A stretch of 64,000 bases of DNA from Ilumatobacteraceae bacterium (GCA_039920665.1 JBDSDH010000042.1:2532-66531); one strand, 5' to 3'. Counted from the first letter of the stretch, positions 21,051 to 54,242 are shown. The notes: generated from the letters alone by a model not told the origin. Numbers and translations: made by a program.

Positions 21051-21054
21051 TCGT

Positions 21055-26876: not shown

Positions 26877-26915
26877 CCGAATACGCCCACGACGGCGGCT
26901 CGCGCGGATACCACG

Positions 26916-36255: not shown

Positions 36256-36347
36256 CCGATTCCTCCCTGCAGATTTTCCGGCGCGGCCAGCGTGATCCAC
36301 CAACCGATGACCGCACCGTAAAGCGCCAAGATGGCCGTCACCCTGAG

Positions 36348-36369
36348 TTCAGGTGAACGAGAGGTGAAC
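36348..36369 (-). promoter_or_regulatory. PHO-box-like pair of 11-nt direct repeats facing the pstB-phoU-senX3-regX3 operon
   Basis: The minus strand reads GTTCACCTCTC GTTCACCTGAA, with exact 11-nt spacing, about 90 nt upstream of the ATG at 36255. Confidence 0.5.
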
Positions 36370-36445
36370 AACACCGGAAGTGCGGTTGGCCGGTCAGGGA
36401 GATCTGTGCCAACGGGCGCGACCACCCCCCGACGATTCGCCAGTC

Positions 36446-36467
36446 GTTCATCTCTGGTTCATCCAGT
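36446..36467 (+). promoter_or_regulatory. PHO-box-like pair of 11-nt direct repeats upstream of pstS
   Basis: The plus strand reads GTTCATCTCTG GTTCATCCAGT, with 11-nt spacing, about 70 nt upstream of the pstS GTG. An AAGGAG RBS lies at 36526-36531. Confidence 0.5.
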
Positions 36468-36538
36468 CTCAGGGTTGTGTACACCTTGCTTGCTTACGGT
36501 TCTCCAATGTTGAACACACCCCTTCAAGGAGAACCAAC

Positions 36539-37762: not shown

Positions 37763-37886
37763 GCCACGACGGATCCCCCCGGTGGACCGGGCCTTCGGGC
37801 CCGGTCCGCTGTTGTCTGCCCACTTGAACCCGCCTGCCCACCTGAACCCTCCCGCCACGAACCCCAGCCGGCCCTCGAAGGATCGC

Positions 37887-38849
37887 ATGACACTCACACT
37901 CTCTGATCTCCGGACCAAGAAGCAGGTCGGCGACAGGATTTTCCGCTACTCCACGGTCGCCGGTGGCGCAGTCATTCTGATCACTCTCGGTCTGATCGCC
38001 TACACGGTGACCAACAAGTCAGCGCTCATCTTCCGCACCGAGGGCCTCAACTTCTTCACCGAACGCCGTTGGGCACCAAGCGCCGACAAGCCGGTCTTCG
38101 GCGCCTTGTCGTTCATCTACGGCACTGCCATCACCGCTGTGATCGCGGTGCTGCTGGCGGTTCCGGTCAGCCTCGGGTTGGCCCTGTTCACCACGCAGGT
38201 CGCGCCGAAGTGGCTGAAGCGACCGCTCGTCACGCTGACCGACATCGTCGCTGTGGTTCCCTCGGTGGTGTTCGGCTTGTGGGGCATCATCTATCTCGCT
38301 CCCAAGCTGGTCGGGTTCTTCAAGAACATGAACGGTTGGTTCGATGGCGTGCCCGTGCTGTCGAGCATTTTCGGCAAGGTCTCTGCCGGTCGCTCGTTCC
38401 TGACGGCAGGGTTGATTCTGGCCGTGATGATCACGCCGATCATCACCTCGCTCGCTCGTGAGGTCATCGAGACCTGCCCTCAAACCGATCGTGATGGCGC
38501 CTTGGCGCTCGGTGCGACACGGTGGGAGATGATCACCGGCGCTGTCTTGCCACACTCGGCCGGCGGCATCGTCGGTGCCGTGATGCTCGGCCTCGGCCGA
38601 GCGATGGGCGAGACCATCGCCGCCGCTCTGGTCATTGGTTCCTCGCCAACCATCACGGCCAACATCTTTTCTTCCGGCGACTCGTTGCCATCGGTGATTG
38701 CGTTCCAGTGGGGTGAAGCAACGAGCGACGAGAAACGCAGCGCCTTGATTGCGATGGGCCTGACGCTGTTCGTCCTCACCTTGGTCGTCAACTTCGCAGC
38801 GACGGCAGTGGTCAACCGAGCCATGAAGCGGATGCAGGGAGCTTCGTGA
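37887..38849 (+). CDS. pstC: Phosphate ABC transporter permease PstC
   Basis: Six-TM permease with an EAA-like loop (ALGATRWEMI). ATG at 37887. Confidence 0.9.
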   Translation: MTLTLSDLRTKKQVGDRIFRYSTVAGGAVILITLGLIAYTVTNKSALIFRTEGLNFFTERRWAPSADKPVFGALSFIYGTAITAVIAVLLAVPVSLGLALFTTQVAPKWLKRPLVTLTDIVAVVPSVVFGLWGIIYLAPKLVGFFKNMNGWFDGVPVLSSIFGKVSAGRSFLTAGLILAVMITPIITSLAREVIETCPQTDRDGALALGATRWEMITGAVLPHSAGGIVGAVMLGLGRAMGETIAAALVIGSSPTITANIFSSGDSLPSVIAFQWGEATSDEKRSALIAMGLTLFVLTLVVNFAATAVVNRAMKRMQGAS

Positions 38850-39772
38850 TGCCGACAGCCATGCTCGAACGTCGAGAAACCCATCCCGTTTCAGTCGAAG
38901 ACCTTGCGGGGGTCGGTGGCCGCCGCAAGTTGAAGAACGCCGTAATGACTTCGCTGATGGGCGTGTCCGTCCTCATCATCCTGGTCGCGCTGATCCTGGT
39001 GCTCTGGACAGTAGTCACCAAGGGCTGGTCGATTGTGACCGGCATGTTCCCGGATTGGTTCACCGAAGACATCCAGTTGTCGCCTCGTCGCCCGGGGCCC
39101 GGCGTGAAGGCAGCGATCGTCGGCACCGTGATCACGACCGCCATGGCGTCAGTGATTGCGATCCCGCTCGGCATCGCCGGTGCGGTGTATCTCAACGAGT
39201 ACGGCAAGCGTGGATTGTTCGCTCGGATCCTGCGCTTTTTCACAAGTGTGATGGCCGGCGTGCCGTCGATCGTGATGGGCCTCTTCATCTACGTCTTCTG
39301 GGTCGTACCCCGCGGCACCGATGGACTCAACGGCTTCAGCGGCGCGCTGGCGCTCGCATGCCTGATGTTGCCGATCGTCGTCCGCTCGACGGAAGAAATG
39401 CTCAAGCTGGTCCCACAGAACCTGCGCGACGCGAGCTACGCACTCGGCGCGACCGGGAGCAGGACCACGCTCGGCATCGTGATCCCGAAGGCTTCGCCCG
39501 GCATCATCAGCGGCTGCCTGCTTGCCATCGCCCGTGCGGCCGGTGAGACGGCCCCGCTGATCTTCACGATCGGTGCCGCCAAACGAACGAACTGGAACGT
39601 GTTCGACGGCACGAACACCTCGCTCAGTCTGCAGATCTACAACAACGCCAAGGAGAGCTTCGCGACCGCCCAGGAACGGGCATGGGGAGCTGCGCTGACC
39701 CTCATCGTGCTCGCCGTCCTGTTCACCGCCGCGGCGCGGATCCTGTCCGCCCGCATCTCCAACAAGTCATAG
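38846..39772 (+). CDS. pstA: Phosphate ABC transporter permease PstA
   Basis: The start overlaps the pstC stop. Permease motifs [11 protein letters not shown] and [10 protein letters not shown]. Confidence 0.9.
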
Positions 39773-39777
39773 GCACC

Positions 39778-40698
39778 ATGAACTCCACCGACACGACTCA
39801 CGCCACCGACACAACCGATCTCGTCGACGACGTCGATATCTCGATCTTCGCGGCGGTGGGCACGACTCCTGTCGTCGTGCAGTCCGCGGCGTCTGACATA
39901 CCCGATCCGGGTCGCGAGTTGGTGTTCGACGTCGAGGACCTCGCCGTGTGCTACGGCGCGTTCACAGCCGTGCGCGAGGTGAACCTGAAGATTCGCCCGA
40001 ACGAGATCACTGCGTTCATCGGACCCTCCGGCTGCGGCAAGAGCACCGTGCTGCGCTGCTTCAACCGGATGAACGACACGATCGCAGGCGCACGAGTCGA
40101 CGGCAAGGTCGAGTATCGCGGCATCGACCTGTATGCCCCCGACGTGTCGGCGAACCAGGTCCGGCGTTACATCGGGATGGTGTTCCAGAAGCCGAACCCG
40201 TTCCCCAAGAGCATCTACGACAACGTCGCCTATGGCCCGCGTCTGATCGGCATCAGCAAGAAGTCCGAACTCGACGACATCGTCGAGCACTCACTCAAGG
40301 GCGCTGCATTGTGGGACGAGGTCGGCAACCGGCTCAAGTCGTCAGCACTCGGCCTGTCGGGAGGTCAGCAGCAGCGGCTGTGCATCGGCCGAGCGCTCGC
40401 GATCAAGCCCGACGTGATCCTGATGGACGAGCCCTGCTCGGCCCTCGACCCGATCGCGACGGCCCGGATCGAAGACCTGATGCAGGAGATCAAGAAGGAC
40501 CACACGATCCTGATCGTCACCCACAGCATGCAGCAGGCCGCTCGAGTCAGCGATCGCACGGCGTTCTTCACCACCGAGGTCAACGAGACCAACGATCGCC
40601 GCACCGGCATACTGGTCGAGTGCGACCGCACCGACCGGGTCTTTTCGAACCCGGCCGACGAGCGCACCGAGGCCTACGTCACGGGCCGCTTCGGCTGA
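39778..40698 (+). CDS. pstB: Phosphate ABC transporter ATP-binding protein PstB
   Basis: [35 protein letters not shown] and [14 protein letters not shown] at 39778. Confidence 0.95.
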
Positions 40699-40712
40699 CA
40701 ATCACAGGTCGA

Positions 40713-42830
40713 TCAGGGGTCGAGTCGGCTTTGGGAAACCGTCGTGGGGTCGGCGCTGGGTGTGCGGCCGCGCTTCTGCTTGGCGCTGACCCAGTGATAC
40801 ATTCGCTCTTGGCTGTGCGGCTCGAATGCGTCGGCAGGCCCAACTCGCAGCCAGGTGTTGTCCGGCTGGAGATCGTAAGCAACGATGTCATCGGCGAGTT
40901 GAAAGGCGAGCACTTGGTCGATCCACGGCTGATGCTTGGGATGGGTGACCGGTACGAGCGTCTCGACCCGACGGTCGAGGTTGCGCGGCATCAGGTCCGC
41001 TGAACCGATCAGGAACAATGGCTTGGCCTCGTCAGCGGTGGACGAGGTCCCGTGGGCGAAGCGGTAGATCCGTGAGTGCTCGAGATAGCGACCGAGCACG
41101 CAGCGGACGCGGATGTTCTCCGACAGCCCCGGCACCCCCGCCCGCAGGCAACAGATACCGCGGACGAGCAGGTCGATCTGGGCACCGGCCGCGCTCGCTG
41201 CGTACAGGGCCTCGATCATCTCCGGATCACCGATCGAGTTGGTTTTGATCGCGATCCTGCCCGCCGCCCCATGGGACGCTTCGTTGGCGATCAGTTGCAG
41301 CAGCCGTGGCCGCAACGTGTGCGGCGCAACGACCAGCGCCTTGTAATCCTCGCCTCGGCTGTACCCGGTGAGGTGGTTGAACAGTTGCGTGGCATCCTCG
41401 CCGATCGCTGGATCACACGTGATGAAACCGATGTCTTCGTACAGACGAGCGGTCTTGGAGTTGTAGTTGCCGGTGCCCAGATGGACGTACCGACGCAGGC
41501 CGTCGGCGTCGTTGCGCACGACCAGCACGCACTTCGCATGGGTCTTGAGCCCGACCACGCCGTACACAACGTGCACACCGGCTCGCTCAAGCGTCTTGGC
41601 CCACGTGACGTTGGTGGCCTCGTCGAACCGGGCCTGCAGTTCGACCAACACGGCGACCTGCACGCCTCGTTCGGCAGCTCTCATCAGACTCCGAGCGATC
41701 GGGCTGTCGCCCGATGTCCGATACAGGGTCATCTTGATCGTCTGAACCCGCGGATCGTCGGCGGCCTCGGCGATGAACGCTTCGACCGAACTGGCGAAGG
41801 ACTCGTAGGGATGGTGCACCAGCAGGGCTCGCTCACGAACGACCGAGAACAGGCTGCGATCGGCTTCCTCGGCCGTGGCGATCCGGCCGGCGGTGACCGG
41901 CGGCCAGGGCACGTCCTTGAGCGTGGGCTTGTCGATGCCCTGCAGCGCGAAGAGGCAGGTGAGATCGAGCAACAGTCGGTGGTGGGTGACGCCATCCGGT
42001 TCGAGCTCGAGTTCGCGGAGCAGCAGTTCGAGCATTTCTGGGCTCATCGTCGCCTCGACCTCGAGCCGCACCGCACGTCCGAACCGGCGCCGACGGAGTT
42101 CGAGTTCGACCGCCACGAGGAGATCGTCAGCGTCTTCGTCCTCGAGCGTCAGGTCGGCATTGCGGGTGATCCTGAACGCTGCGACCTCTTCGATCTCCAT
42201 CCCGATGAACAGTGTGTGCAGGTGGGCAGCAATCACCTGCTCGAGCGGCACGAACCGCAGCCCGTCGGGCAACGCAACCAGGCGCGGCAGAATCGACGGC
42301 ACCTTCAAGCGGGCGAAGCGCCGTTCGCCGGTCTCCGGGTCACGAACGGTGGCCGCAAGGCTCAACGCCAGGTTGGAAATGTATGGAAACGGGTGGGCAG
42401 GATCGACGGCGAGCGGCGTGAGCACCGGGAAAATCCGCTGGCTGAAGATGTCGACCACGAAGCTGCGCTCGACCGGCGACAGTTCGGCCCAGGCAAGGAT
42501 CTCGATGCCTTCGTCCTGCAGCGCTGGCCGCAGTTCGTTGGCGAGCAGATCTTCTTGGATCGCGATCAGCTCGCGCACGATCTCACCGATCTCGTCGAGC
42601 TGTTGTTGGGGCTGTCGCCCGTCCGGGCCAGGCGTGACGATGCCGGCGGCAACCTGGTCGTGCAGCGCGGCGACACGAACCTGGAAGAACTCGTCGAGGT
42701 TGGCCGAGAAGATGGCCGCGAACTTGACCCGTTCGAGCAGAGGAATGCCGCGCTCACCAGCCAGCGACAGGACCCGTCGGTTGAACGCCAGCCAACTCAG
42801 TTCGCGGTTGAGATGTCGCTCGTCAAGCAC
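40713..42830 (-). CDS. ppk1: Polyphosphate kinase 1
   Basis: NRELSWLAFNRRVL, NLDEFFQVR, two PLD-like HKD regions (LKTHAKCVLVVR, YLEHSRI) and NLDRRVE. Confidence 0.95.
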   Translation of the reverse strand: MLDERHLNRELSWLAFNRRVLSLAGERGIPLLERVKFAAIFSANLDEFFQVRVAALHDQVAAGIVTPGPDGRQPQQQLDEIGEIVRELIAIQEDLLANELRPALQDEGIEILAWAELSPVERSFVVDIFSQRIFPVLTPLAVDPAHPFPYISNLALSLAATVRDPETGERRFARLKVPSILPRLVALPDGLRFVPLEQVIAAHLHTLFIGMEIEEVAAFRITRNADLTLEDEDADDLLVAVELELRRRRFGRAVRLEVEATMSPEMLELLLRELELEPDGVTHHRLLLDLTCLFALQGIDKPTLKDVPWPPVTAGRIATAEEADRSLFSVVRERALLVHHPYESFASSVEAFIAEAADDPRVQTIKMTLYRTSGDSPIARSLMRAAERGVQVAVLVELQARFDEATNVTWAKTLERAGVHVVYGVVGLKTHAKCVLVVRNDADGLRRYVHLGTGNYNSKTARLYEDIGFITCDPAIGEDATQLFNHLTGYSRGEDYKALVVAPHTLRPRLLQLIANEASHGAAGRIAIKTNSIGDPEMIEALYAASAAGAQIDLLVRGICCLRAGVPGLSENIRVRCVLGRYLEHSRIYRFAHGTSSTADEAKPLFLIGSADLMPRNLDRRVETLVPVTHPKHQPWIDQVLAFQLADDIVAYDLQPDNTWLRVGPADAFEPHSQERMYHWVSAKQKRGRTPSADPTTVSQSRLDP

Positions 42831-42883
42831 GAGCCAAGGATACTCCGACCCGGTTCGGCGAACGGGTGTTGGTCAGGTCGGGC

Positions 42884-43144
42884 TTATTCGTCCTCGTCGA
42901 GCAGGCCGAGATCCCATTCGAGGGAAATCGCTTCACGCTCGGCGTCGCGGATGATGCGCTCGCGGTTGCGACGGAATTGCGGATCGTCGCGAGGCAGCAG
43001 CACCAAACGGGCAAGGACCCGCGCCCGGAATTCGTCGATGACGGCCCGGTCGCCGTAGGCCCCGTAGACCTCCCAGTGCGGTGAGACGGGTCCGAGGTAG
43101 ACGATCTTGGCGTGGGCTCGAGGCTGAACGTTGATGTCGGTCAT
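42884..43144 (-). CDS. Hypothetical small protein (86 aa)
   Basis: ATG at 43144 gives MTDINVQPRAHAKIVYLGPVSPHWEVYGAYGDR..., with an acidic C-terminus. I recognise no family. Confidence 0.5.
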   Translation of the reverse strand: MTDINVQPRAHAKIVYLGPVSPHWEVYGAYGDRAVIDEFRARVLARLVLLPRDDPQFRRNRERIIRDAEREAISLEWDLGLLDEDE

Positions 43145-43397
43145 GGCAAAACTCCTGGCAGACGAGGCTCTAGACACTGCCCCTCGACAGTGCAGGGAGT
43201 GTATCGGCCGAAAGACTGATTGTCGGCTACGGCTGTTGGCAGGATGGACGAGTTGTGTTTGACTGACCTGCAACCGGGAACCGGACGGCTCCGTAGAACG
43301 TCTGAGGAGAGACGTGCTCTTTGGTCAGGAACCTGGGTCCCATCGGGGCTGGTGCGGGTGGACTACGCAGGCGTGGAATCTAGCGAAAGGCTCGTTC

Positions 43398-43694
43398 ATG
43401 CAGGATCAATCAAGGTCACAATCAGGACACGACTTCACGTCGGAAGACGCGGCGACCATCTGGATGTCGGAAGGCAACTGTCGAAACTATCCGCCGGCTG
43501 CATTCTTCCCCAGCGACGGCGTCGGCGTGGATCGGGCTCGCAAGATCTGTGCGACATGTCCCGTCGCCGACACATGTCTGGAGTACGCCTTGCACAACCG
43601 GATCGAACACGGTGTGTGGGGTGGATGCAGCGAGCGTGAGCGTCGTCGGATCCTCAAGCGTCGCCGCGGGCTGGCCCTCACCGCGGTGAGCTGA
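43398..43694 (+). CDS. WhiB-family transcriptional regulator
   Basis: Four Cys (C-x22-C-x2-C-x5-C: GNCRNY...ICATCPVADTC), a GVWGG turn and a basic tail (ERERRRILKRRR). Confidence 0.9.
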   Translation: MQDQSRSQSGHDFTSEDAATIWMSEGNCRNYPPAAFFPSDGVGVDRARKICATCPVADTCLEYALHNRIEHGVWGGCSERERRRILKRRRGLALTAVS

Positions 43695-43732
43695 CAGACA
43701 CGACAACGGCACCCACAACGAGAATCACAGAG

Positions 43733-43784
43733 AAAACCACAACGCCGGTGCCGCTTCTCGGAGCGGCACCGGCGTTGTGGTTTT
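43733..43784. terminator. Bidirectional intrinsic terminator between convergent whiB and tatA
   Basis: A perfect 23-bp stem (aaaaccacaacgccggtgccgct / agcggcaccggcgttgtggtttt) with a 6-nt loop. The A-run on the left and T-run on the right give a U-tract on both strands. Confidence 0.8.
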
Positions 43785-43883
43785 CAGACTTCAGATGAGT
43801 TCCCGTGTGCGACGAAGTCCCAAGCCCTGCCGCTCCAACAATGGTGCTGGGTCGATCCAAGGACCGGACCCGATCAGGTCAGA

Positions 43884-44123
43884 TCACGAGGGGTTGTCGG
43901 AGGCCTTGTCGATCTTGTCGAGACGAGCGAGCTTCTCTTCGATTGTCTCCTCGGTCGAGGCTGCGCCTTCGACCTTGCCCTGATCCAGCCCACGCTTGAA
44001 CTCGGTTTGGGCCTTGCCGAGGTTCTTGGCCAGTTTGGGGATCTGCGATCCGCCGAACAGGACGACCATGACGACGACCAGGATGATGATCTCTTGCGGT
44101 GAGTCGAGGAATGCTGGGAACAT
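43884..44123 (-). CDS. tatA: Twin-arginine translocase subunit TatA/E
   Basis: 79 aa with a TM helix (IIILVVVMVVLFGGSQIPKLAKNLGKA) followed by an amphipathic helix and an acidic tail. Confidence 0.9.
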   Translation of the reverse strand: MFPAFLDSPQEIIILVVVMVVLFGGSQIPKLAKNLGKAQTEFKRGLDQGKVEGAASTEETIEEKLARLDKIDKASDNPS

Positions 44124-44210
44124 GCGTTGAACCTTACCAGTGGGTCTGTTCGGAGCGGTAGGCGCTCACAGCGGTTTCTTTCGGTGCAGACCCCGAGGGA
44201 CCAGCGTTGA

Positions 44211-44531
44211 TCAGGCCGTCGCGGTACGACGGGTCGACTGTGCCCGCTGGCGGCGCAAGCGGCGACGTTCGCGCTCGCTGAGACCGCCCCAGATGCCGAA
44301 CTTCTCACCGTTGACCAACGCGAACTCGAGGCAGTCGAGGCGAACCACACAACCGCGGCACACCTCCTTGGCCTCACGAGTGCTCGCACCGCGTTCGGGG
44401 AAGAACAGGTCGGGGTCGACACCGAGGCAGTTGGCCTGGTCCTGCCAGCTCCGATCGTCTTCGGTGCCTGCGCCGCTGTGTGTTCCGCCATGTGTGTTCG
44501 GCGAGTGGATGTTGGAGAAGTTATTGGTCAT
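44211..44531 (-). CDS. WhiB-family transcriptional regulator
   Basis: ANCLGVDPDLFFP, EVCRGCVVRLDCLEFAL, GIWGG and ERERRRLRR. An AGGAGG RBS precedes the ATG at 44531. Confidence 0.9.
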   Translation of the reverse strand: MTNNFSNIHSPNTHGGTHSGAGTEDDRSWQDQANCLGVDPDLFFPERGASTREAKEVCRGCVVRLDCLEFALVNGEKFGIWGGLSERERRRLRRQRAQSTRRTATA

Positions 44532-44770
44532 CGTGTGGCCTCCTGCCTTTGTAGGCCGGGGTGCAATTGGCTCCGACGAGGTCGTCGGGGTGTGATCGCA
44601 CCCGTGTAATTACAATGGTGTCATTGTCCCCTATCACATCCCACCTTTGCAAGGGGGGATTTCACATTTGTCGGATTTCTCGCGCGATGAGCGCGAATCA
44701 CTGAACGCCGAGCACGTGCAGTCGCGCGCTTCGTGAGATCCAGCGACCCTCGAGCCAAACGGAAACCGGA

Positions 44771-46246
44771 TCAGCTGGCTTGGCGACCGCCGCGAGCCAT
44801 CCGCTTCTTGTTCTCGATGAAGTCGACCAGCACGAAATCACCCAGGTTTTCCGGTGTCGTGAAGAACGCCCGGCCGCGGTTGATCGAGGTCAACTTCTCG
44901 ATGAAGCTCTTCAGCGAACGGTCTGCGTCGAGCATGAACGTGTTGATCCGGATGTTGTCCTTGGTGCATCGGAGCACCTCGCGCAAGGTGGCCTCGACGG
45001 TCTCCTGGGTCGGCGGGTAGTTGAAGTACGGCTCACCGTTGGCACGGATATGAGCGGTTGGTTCGCCGTCGGTGATCATGATGATCTGCTTGGTTCCGGT
45101 CTGGCGCGACAGCAACTTGCGAGCAAGCATCAACGCGTGTTGCATGTTGGTGCCGTATGCAAAGTCCCAACTCACCTCGGGCAATTGCTCGGCTGTCAGG
45201 ATCCGGGCCACTTCGCCGAAGCCGACGAGGCCCATGTAGTCGCGCGGGAACTGCGAGGTGATCAAGGAGTGCAGGGCCATCGCGACTTTTTTTGCCGGGA
45301 GGAAGTTGTCGCGCATCGGCATGCTCATCGACAGGTCGAGCAACAGCACCGTCGCCGACTTGGTGACGTGCTCGGTGCGCTCGATTTCGAAGTCCTCCGG
45401 CGACAGGTGCACGGGCGTGCCGCCACCGCTGCGCCGCAGTGCGTTGCGGATCGTTCGTTGGAGGTCGAGGTTGAACGGATCGCCGTACTCGTACTGCTTG
45501 GTCTCGTAGGTGCGCTCGTGGCCCTGGCCGTGCAGATCCATCTGGTGCTGGCCGGTCTTGTCCTTGGCGAGCTTGCTGAACAGCTCGCGCAGTGCGTTGG
45601 AGCCGATCTTGCGCATCCCCTTCGGCGTGAGTTCGAGACGACCTTCCTTGTTCTGGATCAGGCCGGCCTCTTCGAGCATCTTGGCCATCTCGGCCAGCCG
45701 CTCGAGTGACCGAGCGGCGTCGTCACCCATCAGGTCGCGGACGCGATCCATGTCGGCTTCGGCCAGCGCGCTCGGGTTGGTGGCGTTGCGGAGCAGGTTC
45801 TCGAGCTGATCGAGCTCGCCGAGTTCCTGCATCATCTGCATCGCCTGACCCATGCCCATCGGGTCCTGGCCCTCGAACTCGTAGCTCTGGTTCCAGTTCA
45901 TCTGGGGGAACATGCTGCGCAGGTTCTGGCCGAGCTGATCCATCTGCCAGCGGAGGTCCATGTCTTCCATCAACTGATCGCTGAGCTGCTGCATCTGGGC
46001 CCGCTGCTCGGGCGTCATCGAGTTCATCATCGCCTGCATCGCAGCCATCCGCTTGGCCATGATCTCGAGCAGTTCGTCGAGCGACTCTGGGTTCTCCGGG
46101 AAGAAGTCGCCGAAGTTCTCCATGAACTGCTCGAACTGTGGATCCTCACCGCGCTGCTGCTTGTCGAGCATCTCGTTGAGACTGGCCAGCATGTCCTTCA
46201 TCCGGGCCATGTCTTTGGGCGACATGTTCTGCATCTCGCCGCTCAT
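44771..46246 (-). CDS. VWA (von Willebrand A / CoxE-like) domain protein, apparently lacking its N-terminal ~200 aa
   Basis: A Met/Gln/Glu-rich helical region (MQNMSPKDMARMKDML..., MTPEQRAQMQQL) is followed by a C-terminal VWA domain with MIDAS residues (LLLDLSMSMP, GTNMQHAL, ITDGEPTA). There is an in-frame stop 5 codons upstream of the ATG and no MoxR-type ATPase partner upstream. Confidence 0.75.
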   Translation of the reverse strand: MSGEMQNMSPKDMARMKDMLASLNEMLDKQQRGEDPQFEQFMENFGDFFPENPESLDELLEIMAKRMAAMQAMMNSMTPEQRAQMQQLSDQLMEDMDLRWQMDQLGQNLRSMFPQMNWNQSYEFEGQDPMGMGQAMQMMQELGELDQLENLLRNATNPSALAEADMDRVRDLMGDDAARSLERLAEMAKMLEEAGLIQNKEGRLELTPKGMRKIGSNALRELFSKLAKDKTGQHQMDLHGQGHERTYETKQYEYGDPFNLDLQRTIRNALRRSGGGTPVHLSPEDFEIERTEHVTKSATVLLLDLSMSMPMRDNFLPAKKVAMALHSLITSQFPRDYMGLVGFGEVARILTAEQLPEVSWDFAYGTNMQHALMLARKLLSRQTGTKQIIMITDGEPTAHIRANGEPYFNYPPTQETVEATLREVLRCTKDNIRINTFMLDADRSLKSFIEKLTSINRGRAFFTTPENLGDFVLVDFIENKKRMARGGRQAS

Positions 46247-47549
46247 CTTGTCGACGCTCGATCATGTTGAACAGACGACGCACGTTGATGTACGTCCAGT
46301 CGGTGTTTGACGACAGGGTGCGAGCACCCCAGACGCGAATGCCGCGGGTACCGAAGGGACGAATGCAGTTGATCCCCATCGGGTTGAGCAGACCCTGCTC
46401 GGCCATCGTGATGTTCATCTCGACATCGAGCGCGCCGCGAACGACCTCGTTGGCCGGGGCCTTCCAGACACCACGGGTGTCGTCGGTGCGAGCCCAGATG
46501 CCGGCCATGTGGCCGGACGGGGGAACCATGACCTCGGTGTCTCCGTTGTCGACCGACGCCGGGTTGCTGACCTTGATCCACGGGTAGTAGAACGCCGCGA
46601 ACTGGCTGTCGTACATCGCCACGCCTTCGCGCCACTCCTTGACTTGCTGGGGCGACATACCGGGAGGTGCATCGAGCACGGCCATCCGGTTTGCCTGGCC
46701 CTCACAATGGTTGATCAGCGCGAGCTGCACCGACTTCCACATGTTGAGGTCGACGGTGCCGTCATCCTTGGTGGCCGCGGTGATCAGGTCGGGGATCATG
46801 ACCATCGTGACGTCGTCGGCGATGACCAGACCGTTGATCCCGGTGCGAGCGGTCTCGGAACCCGTGAAGGCACGGCCGGAGACCGGCGTCGGGTTGGCCG
46901 GGGCCGGCTCGATGCTGTACAAACCGGCCGGGATCGAAGCGAGGTCGTTGACGAGCTTCTCGGTGTCGATCTTGGTGGCCACCTTGACCTTGGTGGACTC
47001 CTTGTTGATGATCGTCTCAGCCTGACGCTTGCCGGTGGCGAGTGTGAGGTTCGGGTACGACTCGACGACCTTGCCACCCTCGACCACATCGATCGTGAAC
47101 GTCGGCGGATCCGTTTCCTTGGCATCGTCGGCTGGCGCCTCGGGCGTCACCGACAGGGCAATGGCAGCGTTGGGCTCGACGGTCGTGACCTCGAGCGCCG
47201 GCCCGAGGCTGCGGTCTGCCGATGGCAGGGCACGGGTGCCGCTCTCGGTGGCCGGGGTGCTGTTGGGGATGCGCACGATGTAGGCCAGGCTGCCACCGTT
47301 GTTGAAGTAGCCGTAGACCGAGTGAGGCAGCATGATGCCGGGGGCGAAGCCGCCGAACAGCTTCTCGAATTGGGTCCAATTGGTGACCAGCCGGGGCTTG
47401 ACGCCATCCGGATCGGTCAGGTCATCGGTTGGTGCCTTCGCGGTGAAGCCGACAAAGGCGGCAACTGCGGTTGCCCCTGCCGACAGCGTCGCTGAACTGG
47501 ACGCCACCTCTTCTACATAGACGCCAGGCGTGAGATAAGTTGCGGCCAC
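46146..47549 (-). CDS. Phage tail sheath family protein (contractile injection system sheath), C-terminal end replaced by out-of-frame tail
   Basis: N-terminal AATYLTPGVYVEEV and C-terminal-domain motifs GVWKAPAN, LNPMGINCIRPFGTRGIRVWGARTLS and DWTYINVRRLFNMIE. The GTG at 47549 lies 8 nt after a GGAGGGG RBS. After NMIE the ORF reads 37 Arg/Gln/Asp-rich codons that overlap the VWA ORF. Confidence 0.8.
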   Translation of the reverse strand: MAATYLTPGVYVEEVASSSATLSAGATAVAAFVGFTAKAPTDDLTDPDGVKPRLVTNWTQFEKLFGGFAPGIMLPHSVYGYFNNGGSLAYIVRIPNSTPATESGTRALPSADRSLGPALEVTTVEPNAAIALSVTPEAPADDAKETDPPTFTIDVVEGGKVVESYPNLTLATGKRQAETIINKESTKVKVATKIDTEKLVNDLASIPAGLYSIEPAPANPTPVSGRAFTGSETARTGINGLVIADDVTMVMIPDLITAATKDDGTVDLNMWKSVQLALINHCEGQANRMAVLDAPPGMSPQQVKEWREGVAMYDSQFAAFYYPWIKVSNPASVDNGDTEVMVPPSGHMAGIWARTDDTRGVWKAPANEVVRGALDVEMNITMAEQGLLNPMGINCIRPFGTRGIRVWGARTLSSNTDWTYINVRRLFNMIERRQDERRDAEHVAQRHGPDEGHAGQSQRDARQAAAR

Positions 47550-47801
47550 GATCAATTCCCCTCCGTTGAGCTCATTGTGTACTAAACCTTCGCATCAGAT
47601 GCGTTACTCGACAAATTCGCTGCTGAGGCGGGCTCAGCAACCAATCAGTGGATTTCGGTGCCCCTTCAACGATCTGCCCGGTGAAGATTCCTACGTCGAC
47701 CCGCGGCAACAATAACAAGACTGCGTCCACAATGCGAGAAGTTCTTGCTCCTCTCCGTGAGGTTCTTTTGCAGAGGCCACTGATCGCGCCGCGATCCGAT
47801 T
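47550..47801 (-). promoter_or_regulatory. About 250-nt non-coding, lower-GC leader between the DUF4280 gene and the sheath gene
   Basis: The only open frame here has roughly 55% GC3 by eye, versus much higher in neighbouring genes. A small hairpin (gctgag-gcggg-ctcagc) lies at about 47621-47637. Confidence 0.3.
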
Positions 47802-48191
47802 TCAGGGGACGGTGATGGTGACCGCCGGCGACATGGTCACCGAGATCACGCCGCCCCAGTTGCACATGCATTTCGACGTGTTGTTGAGTGCCGGCATCTT
47901 GCCGATCAGCACTGTCGGCGCGCCCGGAGCCCACGGAGCGGCAACGGCCGGAATGCACGGCATCGGGGTCAACACACCCAATGCCGCCGCAGTGGCAGCA
48001 GCAACGATGGGGTTGGAGAGCGTCGTGCACATGCCGAACGGCAGGATGTTCAACAGCGGCTTGTTGTCCATGATGGTCGCGACCGGCTGATTCAGACCCA
48101 TCGTCTGGTTGGTCGGCACGACCATCATCGTCGACGGTGCAAGACCGAACGAACACATCAGGACGCTTCCGTTGACGACAGGCTGGGCCAT
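47802..48191 (-). CDS. DUF4280 (PAAR-like) domain protein
   Basis: MAQPVVNGSVLMCSFGLAPSTMMVVPTN..., PFGMCTT, PMPCIP, WAPGAPTVLIGKMPALNNTSKCMCNWGGVISV. The conserved Cys pattern and length match DUF4280. ATG at 48191. Confidence 0.8.
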   Translation of the reverse strand: MAQPVVNGSVLMCSFGLAPSTMMVVPTNQTMGLNQPVATIMDNKPLLNILPFGMCTTLSNPIVAAATAAALGVLTPMPCIPAVAAPWAPGAPTVLIGKMPALNNTSKCMCNWGGVISVTMSPAVTITVP

Positions 48192-48271
48192 GCCTCGGAC
48201 TGTATCGCAGCCGCCACGCCACAACATGGGGCAGGTGACGCCGTAGCCGCTGTCCATGATTGACTGAGCGG

Positions 48272-50149
48272 ATGTCTCCGAAGGCGGTCGCCAACCCTCG
48301 TTCCGCTGACGCTGCTTCAGGGGTGCCCGATGCGTGGCGCGAGTTCGGTCGATTGTCGATCGAACATCTCACCGCTCCAGTTGACGCGGCACCGCAAGCG
48401 CGAGTGGCGCTCGAGCATCAGCTCGATGTCGCACGCGCCGCGTTCATCGAATCGCTCGACCTGGCGTATCCGTTCTCCTCCATTGTCGCCAACGCGCGTC
48501 TGTCCCCCGCCGCGTCGGCGTTGCTCGCAATCGCGGTGTCGTGTGAACTCGACGGCCGGCTGGCCCGGCTCGTCGCCCACCTCAACGACGATCTCGCCCG
48601 GCCACGGCTCACCCTGCAGACCATCGACCAATTGATGCGCAACAACGGTTCGTCGGTGGCGGAGGTGCTCGGCCTGGATGCCCCGCTGCGTCGCTGCGCA
48701 TTCGTCGAGGTGATCGAGGACGGACCGTGGGCCAACCATGCCCTGGTCGTCGCCGCAGGTGTCGTCTGGGCGCTCGTCGGCGATGGCGCGATCGATCCGC
48801 TCGTGCCGTCCAATGTGCTCGTCGTCGCGGATGACGGCACGGGTGGCGGCGAGGTGGGTGACGATCTCGTGGTGGTCACCGGTGACGACCGCATCCTGCG
48901 ACGCCGCGAAGCGGCGCGGCGGGCGTCGGCGACACGGTTCCTCGTCGTCGACCAGCCGACCGAGACCAACGTCTGGAATGCGATCGTGCGCGAGGCGACG
49001 TTGTCCGGGATGGGCATCATCATCGAACTCGAAGAACCGCTGTCTGCGCAAGGGCAACGCGTGATCGGTCGCAGCGACCACCTCGCCTGGGCACTCAGCT
49101 CGCGCAAGGAACTGGCCATCGCCGACATGCCCAATCGCCGCTGGCGCGAAATTCGCGCCGAACATCGCGATCCCACGTCGCAGGATTGGAACGACGCGGT
49201 CGGCACGGTGGACGCACATCGCCACCACCTGTCCGCCGAGCAGCTCGATCTCGTCGGTCGGGCGTTCGAAGCCCACGATCGTGACCTCGACAGTGCAGTC
49301 CGCCGGTTGATGGCCGGCCCGCTCGAACAATTGGCCCAGCGGATCCGGCCGACGCGTACATGGGACGACATCGTCCTCAGCCCCGAGCGGTTGCGCCATT
49401 TGCACGGCATCGTCGATCGCTACCGGTATGCGTCGACGGTGTTCGACGACTGGGGATTTTCGGACAAGCCATCGCGGGGTCTGGTCGCGATGTTCTCCGG
49501 GCCGTCCGGCACCGGCAAGACCCTGGCCGCCGAGATTGTCGCCGGTGAGCTCGGACTCGATGTGTTCAAACTGAATCTGTCGGCCGTCGTCAGCAAGTAC
49601 ATCGGCGAGACCGAGAAGAACCTCGAACAGATCTTCGACGCCGCCGGCAGCGGCAATGTGGTGTTGTTCTTCGACGAGGCCGACTCGCTGTTCGGCAAGC
49701 GCAGCGAGGTCAAAGATGCTCGCGACCGTTACGCCAACATCGAGGTGTCGTACCTGCTGCAGCGTCTCGAGCGCTACGACGGTGTGGTTCTACTCGCGAC
49801 CAACTTCGAGAAAAACGTCGACGATGCGTTCCTGCGCCGGATCCACGCCCGGATCGAGTTCCCGGTGCCAGGTTCCAACGAGCGCGAACAGATCTGGATC
49901 CGAAACTTCCCGGCGGGCGCTCCCGTCGACGACGTCGATTTCGGGTTCTTGGCCGAACAGTTCGAGATGCCGGGCGGCGCGATCCGCAACGCCGTCATCC
50001 ACGCTGCGTTCCTCGCTGCAGCGGAGGGCCAACGGATCTCGATGGGCCACGCCGTACAAGCCGTGGCTCGCGAATACCGCAAAATGGGCAGGTTGCTCAA
50101 GCCAGATCATTTCGGCCCGTACTTCAACCTCGCCAAATCTGCCGAGTGA
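48272..50149 (+). CDS. AAA+ ATPase with long N-terminal domain (eCIS Afp15/Pvc15-like architecture)
   Basis: Walker A GPSGTGKT (49499-49522), Walker B VLFFDEAD (49661-49684), SKYIGETEKNL, LLATN and DDAFLRR. The AAA module is preceded by ~400 aa of uncharacterised sequence. The start is ATG 48272 or TTG 48260. Confidence 0.9.
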   Translation: MSPKAVANPRSADAASGVPDAWREFGRLSIEHLTAPVDAAPQARVALEHQLDVARAAFIESLDLAYPFSSIVANARLSPAASALLAIAVSCELDGRLARLVAHLNDDLARPRLTLQTIDQLMRNNGSSVAEVLGLDAPLRRCAFVEVIEDGPWANHALVVAAGVVWALVGDGAIDPLVPSNVLVVADDGTGGGEVGDDLVVVTGDDRILRRREAARRASATRFLVVDQPTETNVWNAIVREATLSGMGIIIELEEPLSAQGQRVIGRSDHLAWALSSRKELAIADMPNRRWREIRAEHRDPTSQDWNDAVGTVDAHRHHLSAEQLDLVGRAFEAHDRDLDSAVRRLMAGPLEQLAQRIRPTRTWDDIVLSPERLRHLHGIVDRYRYASTVFDDWGFSDKPSRGLVAMFSGPSGTGKTLAAEIVAGELGLDVFKLNLSAVVSKYIGETEKNLEQIFDAAGSGNVVLFFDEADSLFGKRSEVKDARDRYANIEVSYLLQRLERYDGVVLLATNFEKNVDDAFLRRIHARIEFPVPGSNEREQIWIRNFPAGAPVDDVDFGFLAEQFEMPGGAIRNAVIHAAFLAAAEGQRISMGHAVQAVAREYRKMGRLLKPDHFGPYFNLAKSAE

Positions 50150-50200
50150 GCAAGCTGTCGGGTCAGAACAACCTGCCGACACAGACCGAGAGGACGCACG

Positions 50201-51346
50201 ATGGCGTGGAACTTCCTGCAGGTGGTCGAGATCGGGGCGACCTCGTACGGCATCTATCCGGTGCCGACCGGCGCGCACGGCAACGATCTCGGCATTGCAT
50301 CAACCGATCGTGACACCAACCCGACCGTCGTGCCGATCGCGGGTCTGAAGGTACTGCGGGCCACCAACGACGGGACGTGGGTGCCATCGCTGAACGTGCT
50401 GCGCACCAAGGGCCGACTGGTGATCACCGACGACCGACTGGCGGTGACGTTCGACAAGTTCGTGCCCAAGGACCTCGGTTCGTTCGATCCAGTAGCGGTC
50501 GAACGGCCCGACGGCGGCCGATCGAAACGCCCCAAGCAGATGTTGGTCGGTCACGTCGCACTCGGCCAGATCCGCCAGATCGGTGTCCGCCAGGGTCACG
50601 GTCACGGTCACGGTCACGGTTCGAACGACAAGGGCTCCCGAGACGCGATCAACGACGGGCTCGGCAGCGTGATCATCGCGGCCGTCGATGCCACCGACAC
50701 GATCGTGATCGACCAGCACGCCGGTGTGGTGGTCGCGATCGAGATCATCATCGGCGCATCGGTCGACCCGGTCCCGGTGGTCAACGATGTCCTGGCGCGG
50801 TTGATGACCGAGCGGCTCCGGACGTCGGCCCTCGAGGTCGACCAACCAACTCGCGACGCCTGGGCCGAGATGGCACGCATCGGCTTCACACCGCCTGCGG
50901 GCGAGGTCCAGACCTACGACTTCGATCGCAGCCAACCGGTTCGGCGCGTCGCTGCCCACATCACGACCCACCATCTGATCCCGCCGACCGACACGTCCCC
51001 GGTGCCGACGATGTTGCCGACGCCGGCGCTGGCAATGCCGGCGCTGGCTGGGCCATCCCCGGCTGATCCGGCCTCCGCTGATCCGGCCTCCGCTGATCTG
51101 GCCTCCGCTGATCCGGCCTCCGCACCGACCGGGCATCGGCCCCTGCCGGCGCCGGTGCTGTCGCGACCATCGGGTCCCGAGCCATCACGCCCGGGCGTGT
51201 TCCTGCCGGCGCCGCCTCCGCCCGGATCGACGGCGGAGTGGCGAACAGACCCGTTCGCCCGTCACGAATTGCGATTCTGGGACGGATTCGGCTGGACCGA
51301 GCACGTCCACAGCAACGGTCAGCAGAGCGCCGACCCGCCCCGCTGA
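50201..51346 (+). CDS. Hypothetical protein with C-terminal DUF2510 motif, HG and PASAD repeats
   Basis: The C-terminus WRTDPFARHELRFWDGFGWTEHV matches the DUF2510 signature. Internal repeats are (HG)4 and (PASAD)4. The N-terminal ~230 aa are unrecognised. Confidence 0.7.
   Translation: MAWNFLQVVEIGATSYGIYPVPTGAHGNDLGIASTDRDTNPTVVPIAGLKVLRATNDGTWVPSLNVLRTKGRLVITDDRLAVTFDKFVPKDLGSFDPVAVERPDGGRSKRPKQMLVGHVALGQIRQIGVRQGHGHGHGHGSNDKGSRDAINDGLGSVIIAAVDATDTIVIDQHAGVVVAIEIIIGASVDPVPVVNDVLARLMTERLRTSALEVDQPTRDAWAEMARIGFTPPAGEVQTYDFDRSQPVRRVAAHITTHHLIPPTDTSPVPTMLPTPALAMPALAGPSPADPASADPASADLASADPASAPTGHRPLPAPVLSRPSGPEPSRPGVFLPAPPPPGSTAEWRTDPFARHELRFWDGFGWTEHVHSNGQQSADPPR
50594..50620 (+). repeat. Hexanucleotide repeat (ggtcac)x4.5 encoding HGHGHGHG
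   Basis: Read directly in the sequence. Confidence 0.9.
51062..51121 (+). repeat. 15-bp tandem repeat x4 (gctgatccggcctcc; one C>T variant)
   Basis: Read directly in the sequence. It encodes ADPAS ADPAS ADLAS ADPAS. Confidence 0.9.
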
Positions 51347-52302
51347 ACGCGCTGGCCCCGCAAACCCGGCAGACACCTGGGAACGAATCGGGCCCGTTGC
51401 CACAAGAGAGGGCCGGCAATTGCGGCAGCGGCGAGTGCCGCCGTCGCCTGATTCATCAGGGTGATCGCCGCCGCAACATCGCCGGCGGCTGCACGACGAC
51501 CGTCTCCGAGCACGCCCCGGTCCTCGATGACATCGCCATAGCGGTTCGCGCCACCGAGGCGAATGCCGAGAGCTGCCGCGAACGCGGACTCGATCACACC
51601 GCCATTCGGCGAAGGATGCTGGGCGGCATCGCGGCGAACAACTCGCTGGATCGCGTTCGCCCGGCCGGGACGCACCCCGGCAACGGTGATCGCTGCAAGT
51701 CGCGCCGGGAGCCAGTTGGCCACGTCGTCGAGGCGCGCGCTCGCCCAACCGAAGCGTTCGTAGCGCGGCGAATGGTGACCCACCATGGCGTCGAGGGTGT
51801 TGACAGCTCGGTGAGCGAGCACGAGTGGCGCGCCACCGATGACGGCCCACATGATCGGAGCGATCACCGCATCGACCGAGTTCTCCGCAACCGATTCGAT
51901 GACCGCTCGGGCCACCTCTGTCTCGGACAGATGGGTCGCCGTCCGCCCGACGAGCGACGGCAGACGGGCCCGGGCGCTCGCCAGGTCCCCGGCCGCGAGC
52001 AAGTCGCCGATCGCCGCTGCTTCTCGGCCGAGCATCCGCCCGGCGACCGCGATCGAGACCGCTGCAGCGGTCGCAGCTGGTCGACCGAGCAGGCGCTGCA
52101 ACCCGACTCCGATCAGTGTTGCGCCACCGACACCGATGGCGCAGAACACCACACCAGCAGTCTTCGAGTTGCGGTACCACTGCGTCTCCAGGGCAGTCAT
52201 CGCCTGCCCGAACCGGGCCACTGGATGGACGGCGACTGGTGGTTCGCCGACGAAGCGATCGATGGCGAGACCGAGCGCGATCGCAGCTCCGGTTGCACGC
52301 AT
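51319..52302 (-). CDS. cbiB: Adenosylcobinamide-phosphate synthase CbiB/CobD
   Basis: LAIDRFVGEPP..HPVARFG, AENSVDAVIAP, HHSPRYERFGWASARLDD and ANWLPARL. Confidence 0.9.
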   Translation of the reverse strand: MRATGAAIALGLAIDRFVGEPPVAVHPVARFGQAMTALETQWYRNSKTAGVVFCAIGVGGATLIGVGLQRLLGRPAATAAAVSIAVAGRMLGREAAAIGDLLAAGDLASARARLPSLVGRTATHLSETEVARAVIESVAENSVDAVIAPIMWAVIGGAPLVLAHRAVNTLDAMVGHHSPRYERFGWASARLDDVANWLPARLAAITVAGVRPGRANAIQRVVRRDAAQHPSPNGGVIESAFAAALGIRLGGANRYGDVIEDRGVLGDGRRAAAGDVAAAITLMNQATAALAAAAIAGPLLWQRARFVPRCLPGLRGQRVQRGGSALC

Positions 52303-52340
52303 CGGCGTACCCTACGGGCGGCGGCTACTCTGCACGTGTC

Positions 52341-54242
52341 ATGCCGAATCTGCGAGAACGCGTCGAGCAGAGGGACCGGGCTGCGTTCGTCGGGCGCGTC
52401 GACGAGCTGGCGTGTTTCGATGCGATCCTGTCCGGCGCTGACCCGCGCAGCATCGTCCATGTGAGCGGCCCGGCTGGGATCGGCAAGAGTACGCTGCTGC
52501 GAGAGGTGGCCCGGCGGGCGCGATCCGCCGGCTATTCGGTGCGGTCGCTCGAGGGTCGCGATCTGCCGCCGTTCCCCGAGGCATTGGAGTCCGCGATCGG
52601 CCCGGTGACCACCGACGGTCCGCCACTCCTCATCATCATTGACTCCTACGAGTTGGTCGGGTCGCTCGACGGCCATCTGCGTTCGGTCATCGTTCCGATG
52701 CTGCCGGACTCGTCGATCATCGTCCTGGCCGGACGAACGAGGCCAGGGCCGGCGTGGTTCGAAGGTGGATGGGACGCCGTCTCGCGAACGATCGAGGTTC
52801 TCGGCATCGGCCACAGCGATGCGGTCGCGCTCGTTCGCCATCACGGACTCGGAATCGACCGGGTCGACGAGATCGTGCGTCGCAGCGGCGGGTCGCCACT
52901 GGCACTCGTGATCGCGGCCCAAGCCGGCGGCGATGGATCGATGGCCGATCTGCTCGACCGGCTGCTCGGCGCCGAAGCCGAGCCCCAGCGAGCGCGCGTG
53001 CTCGGTGTGGCTGCACTGGCGCGGGTGACCACACCCGAGTTGCTCGAAGCGGTGCTGCCGTCGGATGATCCGCACGAGAGTTACAAGTGGCTGGCCGATC
53101 GATCATTCGTCGAACCACTGGCCGACGGGGTCGCCCTCCACTCGCTCGTCGCCCAGTCGATCCGCGACTCGTTGCGCGATCGTGATCCATCCGGAGAGGC
53201 ATCGCTGCGCCGACGTGTCGCGGATTACCTCTATCAACGAGCCCTCGCCGGCCAGTTCTCGTTGTCCACCGATCTCCAGCACCTCGTCATCGACCAGACC
53301 GTCCGCTGGGGGTACTCGCTCGATGTCGGCAGCCGCTACCACATCGATTCGGTGCGGCCAGGCGACGCCGACGTCGTCGGTGGGATTCTGCGGTCGGTCG
53401 GAGTCGGGGCTTGGTGGGACCTGACCGAGGTGTTCTTCACCGATCATCCCGAGTGCACCGGTGTCGTCCGCGATCGCAATGGCCGTTTAGGCGGGTATTA
53501 CGTCGCTGTTTCACCGGCCGCACCGCCCCAGGCTGCCCTCGACGACGTGCTTCTCGGCCCGTGGTTGCGTCATGCCCGCGACGTGTTGCGAACCAACTCC
53601 GCAGTGTTGTGGCGTGAGGCAGTCGATCTGACCGGCCAGATGGGCGAGGTCACATCGCTGCTCGGCTCGGCCGGGATCATCGGCAGCGGCGTGGTCAACC
53701 CGCGCTACGGCTACCTGCCCATCTCGCCGACGCTGCCGGCCGCGCTCGCGTTTGCCGAAGCACTGGGCGCGGCCCACATCTCGGAACTCGACGTCGCCAC
53801 CGGCGGGATGGATCTGCAGTGCTACCTCATCGATTTCGGACCCCAGGGCGTGCTCGCGTTCCAGCGCGACTGGGTGTATCGCGAGTCCGGGGCCAACCCA
53901 CCGCGACCGGTCGCCGGTGACGATGATGCCGGCCAACTGATCCGGATGCTTCGCGATCCAGCGGCGCTCGCTCACGGGCCGTCGTGGCTCGGTTCCGTAC
54001 CGTCGGTCCGGATCGAACGGTTGCGCGAGCTGGTCCGCGAGTCGCTCGGCGTGTTCGGCTCATCGGCCGACGATCGCCTCGCCCACACCATCATCACCGC
54101 TGCCTACATCGACGAGCCGGCCGCCCACGAGTCGATCGCTCGTCGGCTCCATCTCAGCCGCTCGGCGTACTTCCGTCGACTGCAATCAGCCACGACCCGG
54201 CTCGGTGACGAGCTTGCTGCCCGCCGTCGACAATCGTTCTGA
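52341..54242 (+). CDS. STAND/AAA16-type P-loop NTPase with C-terminal helix-turn-helix
   Basis: FVGRVDELACF...VHVSGPAGIGKSTLL (Walker A), LLIIIDSYE (Walker B-like), GGSPLAL, and a C-terminal HTH-like segment IARRLHLSRSAYFRRL. Confidence 0.7.
   Translation: MPNLRERVEQRDRAAFVGRVDELACFDAILSGADPRSIVHVSGPAGIGKSTLLREVARRARSAGYSVRSLEGRDLPPFPEALESAIGPVTTDGPPLLIIIDSYELVGSLDGHLRSVIVPMLPDSSIIVLAGRTRPGPAWFEGGWDAVSRTIEVLGIGHSDAVALVRHHGLGIDRVDEIVRRSGGSPLALVIAAQAGGDGSMADLLDRLLGAEAEPQRARVLGVAALARVTTPELLEAVLPSDDPHESYKWLADRSFVEPLADGVALHSLVAQSIRDSLRDRDPSGEASLRRRVADYLYQRALAGQFSLSTDLQHLVIDQTVRWGYSLDVGSRYHIDSVRPGDADVVGGILRSVGVGAWWDLTEVFFTDHPECTGVVRDRNGRLGGYYVAVSPAAPPQAALDDVLLGPWLRHARDVLRTNSAVLWREAVDLTGQMGEVTSLLGSAGIIGSGVVNPRYGYLPISPTLPAALAFAEALGAAHISELDVATGGMDLQCYLIDFGPQGVLAFQRDWVYRESGANPPRPVAGDDDAGQLIRMLRDPAALAHGPSWLGSVPSVRIERLRELVRESLGVFGSSADDRLAHTIITAAYIDEPAAHESIARRLHLSRSAYFRRLQSATTRLGDELAARRRQSF

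Follow-up and report, generated by a model that had tools for sequence, protein, structure and literature searches.

The stretch analysed here, referred to as the window, comprises 64,000 nucleotides (64 kb; GCA_039920665.1, JBDSDH010000042.1:2532-66531) from an uncultured Ilumatobacteraceae bacterium (Acidimicrobiia), has ~65% GC and derives from a metagenome-assembled genome (MAG). Part of it carries genes related to contractile injection systems (CIS), namely a sheath gene, a DUF4280 gene and a gene for an AAA+ ATPase, with a DUF2510 gene alongside. This region is probably the upstream stump of a Streptomyces-type CIS locus, left by one very recent deletion. At a single point the truncated sheath gene runs into an Rv0959-like VWA gene of the same orientation, which is itself truncated there; relatives carry the complete operon, and the two broken genes show no decay. 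The event would be a chromosomal deletion, possibly arising through end-joining repair, and the leftover genes are presumably without function.

A single junction truncates two genes

The features at and upstream of the break are as follows.
44771-46246, minus strand: 3' remnant of a VWA gene of the Rv0959/Mb0984 kind, spanning 491 codons and starting at an internal ATG (exact GenBank product MEO6126453.1)
46256-46257, no strand: probable deletion junction, joining sheath codon ~462 (of ~525-557) to VWA codon ~180 (of ~670), co-oriented
46146-47549, minus strand: truncated CIS sheath gene, with true sheath coding at 47549-46257 (~431 codons)
47802-48191, minus strand: DUF4280 PAAR-like tip gene, first gene of the sheath operon, intact
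48192-48271, no strand: 80-bp intergenic region from which the DUF4280-sheath operon and the ATPase gene diverge (start-codon positions)
48272-50149, plus strand: AAA+ ATPase gene of the classic clade, C-terminal AAA domain and ~400-aa N-terminal region, intact
50201-51346, plus strand: gene for a DUF2510 protein, a lineage-specific neighbour with CIS membership unproven

As open reading frames (ORFs), the same genes gave the following Pfam matches.
46146-47555, minus strand: truncated sheath ORF; Phage_sheath_1 alone (80.5 bits), without Phage_sheath_1C
47802-48257, minus strand: DUF4280 ORF; DUF4280 (114 bits)
48260-50149, plus strand: AAA+ ATPase ORF; single AAA, residues 411-535 (95 bits)
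50201-51346, plus strand: DUF2510 ORF; C-terminal DUF2510, residues 347-377 only (35 bits)

Start codons were set by exact GenBank protein matches (sheath GTG 47549, DUF4280 ATG 48191, ATPase ATG 48272), giving products of 467 aa (the sheath, MEO6126454.1), 129 aa and 625 aa, respectively.

The window sheath shares 95-96% amino-acid and 82-85% nucleotide identity with the full-length sheaths of related loci L001 and L002, and this homology ends, at both levels, at 46257, after YINVRRLFNMIE. Past 46257 the ORF continues as a 37-codon out-of-frame tail derived from the VWA gene, reaching a stop at 46146. In the full-length relative P0002, where Phage_sheath_1C spans residues 444-550, homology to the window ends at residue 462. 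Mapped onto the Streptomyces coelicolor sheath (8BKY), the cut follows ...LFNMIE at about residue 435, and the window protein has lost the last ~99 residues of the fold, nearly the whole C-terminal domain. Among the matches listed, all 120 sheath homologues are 499-557 aa long, with PF04984 and PF17482. An earlier reading of the window from its sequence alone (the original prediction) had recognized that the sheath lacks its C-terminal part, in agreement with the missing PF17482, and had overlooked the fusion to a truncated VWA gene.

On the other side, VWA homology starts at 46256-46259, and both genes are thus broken at a single point. Nucleotide homology ends at 46256 for L086, 46256 for L085 and 46254 for L167, and a full-length VWA protein, P0121 (from L003), aligns from residue 180 to 674 with window positions 46258-44774. 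VWA homologues are 670-674 aa long and possess PF27532, PF27098 and VWA_2; the remnant is without residues 1-179, the Mb0984_helical domain. Because both genes are cut at the same junction, one event would account for the loss of both gene ends (sheath 3' and VWA 5'), of the remaining operon and of all that lay between. The VWA remnant is collateral damage of the deletion, not a CIS part.

Read on the minus strand, the window passes at the join from ...AACATGATCGAG directly into CGTCGACAAGATGAGC... (in a longer reading, from ...ATGATCGAG into CGTCGACAAG...). At the break point the sheath parents L001 and L002 pass from ...AACATGATCGAG into ACCGC(G/A)ATCATGAAC (continuation: ...GAG, then ACCGCGATC), and the VWA parents L085 and L086 from ...CAGCAGGC into CGTCGACAAGATGAGC. 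The junction is blunt, with 0-1 nt of microhomology between the parents. Tetranucleotide correlation across it is 0.986-0.989, equal to values within the left part, in a test that discriminates weakly between related genomes.

Broken CIS genes were also seen in two long-read metagenome contigs. In L166 the sheath is called as a 120-aa product with Phage_sheath_1C only (1071-1433), and in the baseplate region of L165 baseplate J is split across calls. These pieces look like frameshift artefacts, so truncated CIS genes in databases are not all real; the window junction, unlike them, is a join to foreign sequence.

The rest of the operon is missing from the window

Searching the window by tblastn with the CIS proteins of L001 gave no match for tube, LysM-tube, VgrG, gp25, baseplate or tape measure; the P2 gpI-like gene, which lies beyond the L001 stretch compared, was not among these queries. 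Profile hidden Markov models (HMMs) built from 37-82 homologues each (47-81 for the tube and tube-initiator profiles) were run with --max against six-frame ORFs of the 64 kb. Only the sheath fragment scores (E 1.7e-229), with no tube/gp19-like, LysM-tube, VgrG, gp25 or baseplate ORF detected; the tape measure, having too few homologues, was covered by tblastn only. The window holds no two-domain sheath, no inner tube with initiator and no spike (VgrG/gpD-gp5) with gp25 and baseplate J, the components expected of a functional CIS, and particle assembly from the remaining genes is impossible. Descent from a CIS is evident from the sheath orthology (95-96%) and from the CobD-DUF2510-AAA-DUF4280-sheath synteny with complete loci. 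The original prediction had identified the sheath, the PAAR-like DUF4280 protein and the CIS-linked AAA+ ATPase, as Pfam and synteny bear out, and had found no tube, tape-measure, spike or baseplate gene in the 64 kb; tblastn upholds this absence and the profile HMMs agree (tape measure by tblastn only).

The complete operon is present in relatives. L001 has the gene order of the window, STAND-CobD-DUF2510-AAA-DUF4280-sheath, and its sheath gene is followed by a pair of tube genes, a 170-aa gene, DUF6760, a gp19-like gene and a tape measure of 1380 aa, and then by LysM-tube, VgrG, gp25 and baseplate J. The L002 operon is similar, and the CobD-to-sheath neighbourhood also occurs in L002, L005, L007 and L008. 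VgrG, gp25 and baseplate J are likewise found in L165 and L166, where the operon closes with a Tail_P2_I-like gene ~3.3 kb past the start of baseplate J. The tape-measure gene of relatives (1143-1380 aa, no Pfam match) is named by position and size only. Judged by their sequences, the relatives' operons are predicted to be Streptomyces-type CIS. Scanning GTDB representatives with the sheath fragment returned 80 loci in 80 different assemblies, and there is therefore no sign of several loci per genome at that similarity.

Relatives also show what formerly adjoined the VWA gene. Their full-length VWA gene is preceded by guanylate-cyclase-like, GH1-like and Rv0958-like AAA5 genes, the first adjoining VWA in 76 of ~82 loci; none of the three is present in the window.

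In the mechanism that we propose, one illegitimate, near-blunt recombination would have joined the sheath gene to the co-oriented Rv0959-like VWA gene. Lost in it would be the part of the sheath gene for the C-terminal domain and, from the rest of the operon, both tube genes, the tape measure, LysM-tube, the VgrG spike, gp25, baseplate J/I and the other genes, along with the operon-to-VWA interval, including the guanylate-cyclase-like, GH1-like and Rv0958-like AAA5 genes. The removed DNA would amount to at least ~16 kb, from ~10 kb of CIS (measured on L001) and ~5.5 kb upstream of VWA (L085). The DUF4280, ATPase and DUF2510 genes, lying upstream of the breakpoint, would so have escaped; they are most likely intact since almost no time has elapsed, and not demonstrably kept for a new role.

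The broken genes show no decay

The two broken genes provide an internal clock. Over the columns that at least 95% of homologues conserve, we counted private changes and found 0 of 117 in the sheath, 0 of 95 in the ATPase and 0 of 33 in DUF4280; the VWA fragment has 1 of 239 (median for intact homologues, 1) and the ppk control 1 of 238. One change in 356 conserved codons of the broken genes limits neutral divergence since the break to at most ~0.006 per site. Synonymous divergence (dS) to the nearest relatives is 0.45-0.55, and the break would on this estimate date to the last few percent of the window branch.

Substitution rates give no sign of relaxation in the sheath. Its ratio of nonsynonymous to synonymous divergence (dN/dS) is 0.055 against L001 and 0.040 against L002, and its three-taxon branch dN is 0.013 for the window versus 0.012 for L001 and 0.009 for L002, with no acceleration. 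The ATPase dN/dS (0.149) compares with 0.114 for STAND and 0.23 for CobD, and its distance to outgroups is that of L001, with no rate excess. DUF2510 has dN/dS of 0.30-0.37; DUF4280 and DUF2510 are fast in every pair, a property not specific to the window. An apparent 5-fold acceleration of DUF4280 on the window branch (dN 0.23 versus 0.05) was rejected, because the window is no farther from outgroups L005, L006 and L008 than are L001 and L002, and the topology effect recurs in the CobD control. Very recent loss was one of two options in the original prediction, which suggested dating it by comparison with relatives. That comparison supports it (at most ~0.006 neutral substitutions per site), as do the one junction cutting two genes, the complete operons of close relatives and the absence of excess substitutions in the broken genes.

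Alternative readings of the region

The pristine state of both broken genes would equally be expected if the 85,190-nt MAG contig were chimeric, a case in which assembly or binning misjoined the CIS and VWA-ppk regions of the same or a closely related population, both genes being intact in the cells. Several results weigh against a real deletion, and some of them also fit such an artefact. A degenerate pattern for the junction has 0 matches in JGI metagenome contigs; the source genome, itself a MAG, is absent from GTDB representatives, where the best sheath match is 90% and no independent assembly of the junction exists. Two GenBank series contain the products of the region, MEO6126448.1 (ppk) to MEO6126458.1 (CbiB), as exact matches, and MEO6491796-806, with identical products; they may be one contig deposited twice. 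No CIS homologue lies within the 10-kb flanks of 82 VWA loci, in a search whose L001 queries began with the sheath and ended with the initial part of baseplate J, leaving out distal operon genes (Tail_P2_I-like and beyond). Conversely, VWA, ppk and cyclase-like genes are absent from 82 sheath loci, with no VWA within 10 kb of the sheath, and L165 and L166, which reach ~8 kb past the CIS end, have unrelated genes there. As no relative links the two loci within 10 kb, a simple deletion would remove a possibly large segment, including a class-wide conserved cluster that almost all relatives keep. The join itself argues the other way: its parents share at most 1 nt and no k-mer, making a misjoin in a de Bruijn (k-mer) graph unlikely, composition is the same on its two sides, and both sides are about equally far (82-88% nucleotide identity) from their nearest database relatives. 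We therefore regard a chimeric contig as unlikely, while giving it more weight than the two readings that follow.

The same co-oriented join of sheath 5' to VWA 3' sequence would fit, geometrically as well as a deletion does, the joint of a tandem duplication or an excised circle (order VWA...sheath), with intact copies of both genes and a whole CIS elsewhere in the genome. Such a unit would, however, have to be longer than the 64 kb of unique sequence in the window, contigs are normally interrupted at collapsed repeats, and neither flank is repeated within the window; we hold this to be highly improbable. A further reading, the second option of the original prediction, accepts the deletion and has DUF4280, the ATPase and possibly DUF2510 selected for a particle-independent function, for example an AAA+ unfoldase with a PAAR-like adaptor acting on another substrate. 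Their ORFs are intact, all ATPase motifs are present, the ATPase dN/dS of 0.149 is comparable to that of neighbouring housekeeping genes, and the gene is not always beside the CIS operon in relatives, which hints at partial independence. These dN/dS values, computed for the three intact genes as had been suggested and low for the ATPase, nevertheless integrate mostly pre-deletion time and lend retention no support. The ORFs of the region are uninterrupted with GC3 (GC at third codon positions) of 0.79-0.83, just as originally described, but the certainly dead sheath and VWA fragments are equally intact and equally biased, so neither property is informative on retained function. With no decay in the broken genes, the event is too recent for intact ORFs to signal selection. 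No defence-system or other family match exceeded threshold, and no sheath-less AAA-DUF4280 module was seen, in loci selected by their sheath. Retention for such a function seems to us very unlikely, and a very recent deletion with passive survival of the upstream genes is the reading that we prefer.

Genes upstream of the break

The DUF4280 protein matches PF14107 with 114.3 bits (cut-off 26.3) over profile positions 1-106 of 109, and has weak matches to the IglG model (49 bits) and to SalCis10 in 9RCE. Of 77 related loci that could be evaluated, 43 have the gene immediately upstream of the sheath and co-oriented with it. Among orthologues from L001-L010, DUF4280 evolves much faster than the adjacent sheath (dN/dS 0.3-0.45 and 58-70% identity, versus 0.05 and 95%), and L001 and L002 resemble one another more than either resembles the window. 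This pattern is compatible with tip diversification or allele exchange. The 80-bp region separating DUF4280 from the ATPase is presumed from its position to be a candidate promoter region.

The ATPase retains Walker A (GPSGTGKT), Walker B (VLFFDE) and sensor-1 (LLATN) motifs, scores 95 bits against PF00004 and is 81% identical to its L001 orthologue. Its nearest solved structures are VAT, p97 and Cdc48, with no Afp15 or Pvc15 structure among the best 60 of 233 PDB hits. Of 59 evaluable loci, 33 have a homologue within the 10 kb preceding the sheath, in 22 of them divergently oriented. It is missing from the sheath upstream flank in L002, L005, L006 and L009, and present in sister loci, divergent between CobD/DUF2510 and DUF4280 (compare L001, L007 and L008). 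Such variable presence in close, complete-looking loci implies that gains, losses or moves of the gene were uncoupled from the structural operon. By its AAA domain and genomic linkage, we assign the protein as CIS-linked, with a putative Cis15/Afp15-like role. An identity as a defence ATPase (IetA/Iet, TRIP13) was considered and rejected: PADLOC IetA matches are restricted to the generic AAA core, the NCBIfam IteA score is 92 bits against a cut-off of 510, and scores this far under family cut-offs led us to drop the defence-system reading. Neighbouring genes, among which an IetS partner would be expected, have no PADLOC matches, and the DUF2510 protein has neither a PADLOC nor an NCBIfam match.

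DUF2510, which the original prediction had counted as a CIS part, lies beside the CIS in only four of 82 sheath loci, all of them among the closest (L001, L002, L005 and L008), with orthologue identities of 52-61%; L006 has no DUF2510 gene, and CobD there abuts DUF4280. DUF2510 is consequently a lineage-specific neighbour and not a conserved CIS component. No family matches the N-terminal ~240 residues of the protein, which also has a (GH)n run around residues 133-141 and, ahead of the DUF2510 motif, a tandem low-complexity stretch of PASAD type.

Flanking genes

Beyond the features above, Pfam identifies the following flanking genes.
35204-44609, span without strand: left flank with pst genes
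40713-42830, minus strand: ppk
43884-44123, minus strand: TatA
44214-44609, minus strand: WhiB
51319-52302, minus strand: CobD/CbiB, syntenic with complete-CIS relatives
~52326-54242, plus strand: STAND/AAA_16 regulator-like gene

Both sides of the junction lie in their native context. The right flank (51319-54242) is colinear with L001 and L005. On the left, VWA-WhiB-TatA-ppk-pst is colinear with L086 and L167 over 11 kb and is kept in ~40 VWA loci. This is part of a neighbourhood found class-wide in Acidimicrobiia (L003, L085-L164 and L167), composed of Rv0958-like AAA5, GH1-like, 183-aa guanylate-cyclase-like, VWA, WhiB, TatA, ppk and pst genes; the part in the window (35204-46256) has lost the AAA5, GH1-like and cyclase-like genes and the VWA N terminus. 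The stretch from AAA5 to VWA varies, L003 having MalT-like and 989-aa genes and L085 having DUF222 and transglutaminase-like genes upstream of the GH1-like gene. Two pstB-like ABC ATPase genes (35204-36135 and 39922-40698) in opposite orientation flank the pst permease genes, near a PhoU-like gene; they are 78-84% identical in nucleotide sequence to the two copies of L167, where the arrangement is kept.

Elsewhere in the window, a DUF4331 protein (61633-63858, minus strand, 315 bits) has three tandem C-terminal repeats of ~125 aa each, which resemble the C terminus of the 989-aa protein of L003 (40-46% identity). A repeat or mobile element was considered for a pair of 663-aa ORFs (20851-22842 and 26412-28403) and rejected, as the two are unrelated to each other.

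Relation to known systems

The best PDB matches of the window sheath are those of S. coelicolor CIS-Sc (8BKY and 8BL4; Casu et al. 2023, PMC10066040), with query residues 6-431 matching chain residues 3-433 of 534. The full-length P0002 sheath aligns with 8BKY end to end (3-526 of 534, E 5e-144). Operons of the relatives share with CIS-Sc a cis1a/1b-like tube pair, LysM-tube, VgrG, gp25 and baseplate, whereas the window is reduced to the tip gene, the ATPase gene and ~80% of the sheath. The relatives have a 1143-1380-aa gene at the tape-measure position, whereas CIS-Sc is described as being without a typical tape measure (PMC10066040). CIS-Sc is cytoplasmic with a role in cell death.

As in the Afp and PVC systems, the window has an AAA+ ATPase gene linked to CIS genes, and its sheath is distantly homologous to Pvc2-4 and Afp2-4. 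Pvc15 is reported to load effectors into the tube (PMC9054023, PMC11495950). By analogy, with no tube left there would be nothing for a Pvc15-like ATPase to load. The window ATPase has a single C-terminal AAA domain and a ~400-aa N-terminal region, whereas the title of a preprint on Pvc15 mentions a D2 domain.

DUF4280 corresponds to PAAR_H, a class of PAAR-like tip proteins (PMC8651086). The window protein shares with these and with IglG the DUF4280 domain, a partial IglG match and a position upstream of the sheath in relatives; its 49 bits stand against an IglG family cut-off of 200, and no VgrG spike is left for it to cap. The C-terminal 491 residues of the VWA remnant are 96% identical to full-length Rv0959/Mb0984-like orthologues with Rv0959_3rd and VWA_2. 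Rv0959-like VWA proteins are paired with an Rv0958-like AAA5 (MoxR-type) ATPase, whereas the window has lost both the Mb0984_helical domain and the upstream partner genes.

Implications

The Acidimicrobiia CIS family, with its conserved DUF4280-sheath start, often divergent ATPase and fast-evolving tip, appears to be experimentally uncharacterized, a literature search having found no paper on it. For genome scans, the region illustrates that intact ORFs beside a deletion scar are no evidence of retained function if the broken genes show no decay. On the preferred reading, a Streptomyces-type CIS would have been knocked out naturally and very recently in an uncultured actinobacterial lineage of freshwater or soil; the case needs no new biology and would indicate that CIS loci can be lost in one step. 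Should reads confirm the junction, CIS-plus and CIS-minus variants might be open to comparison within the population concerned.

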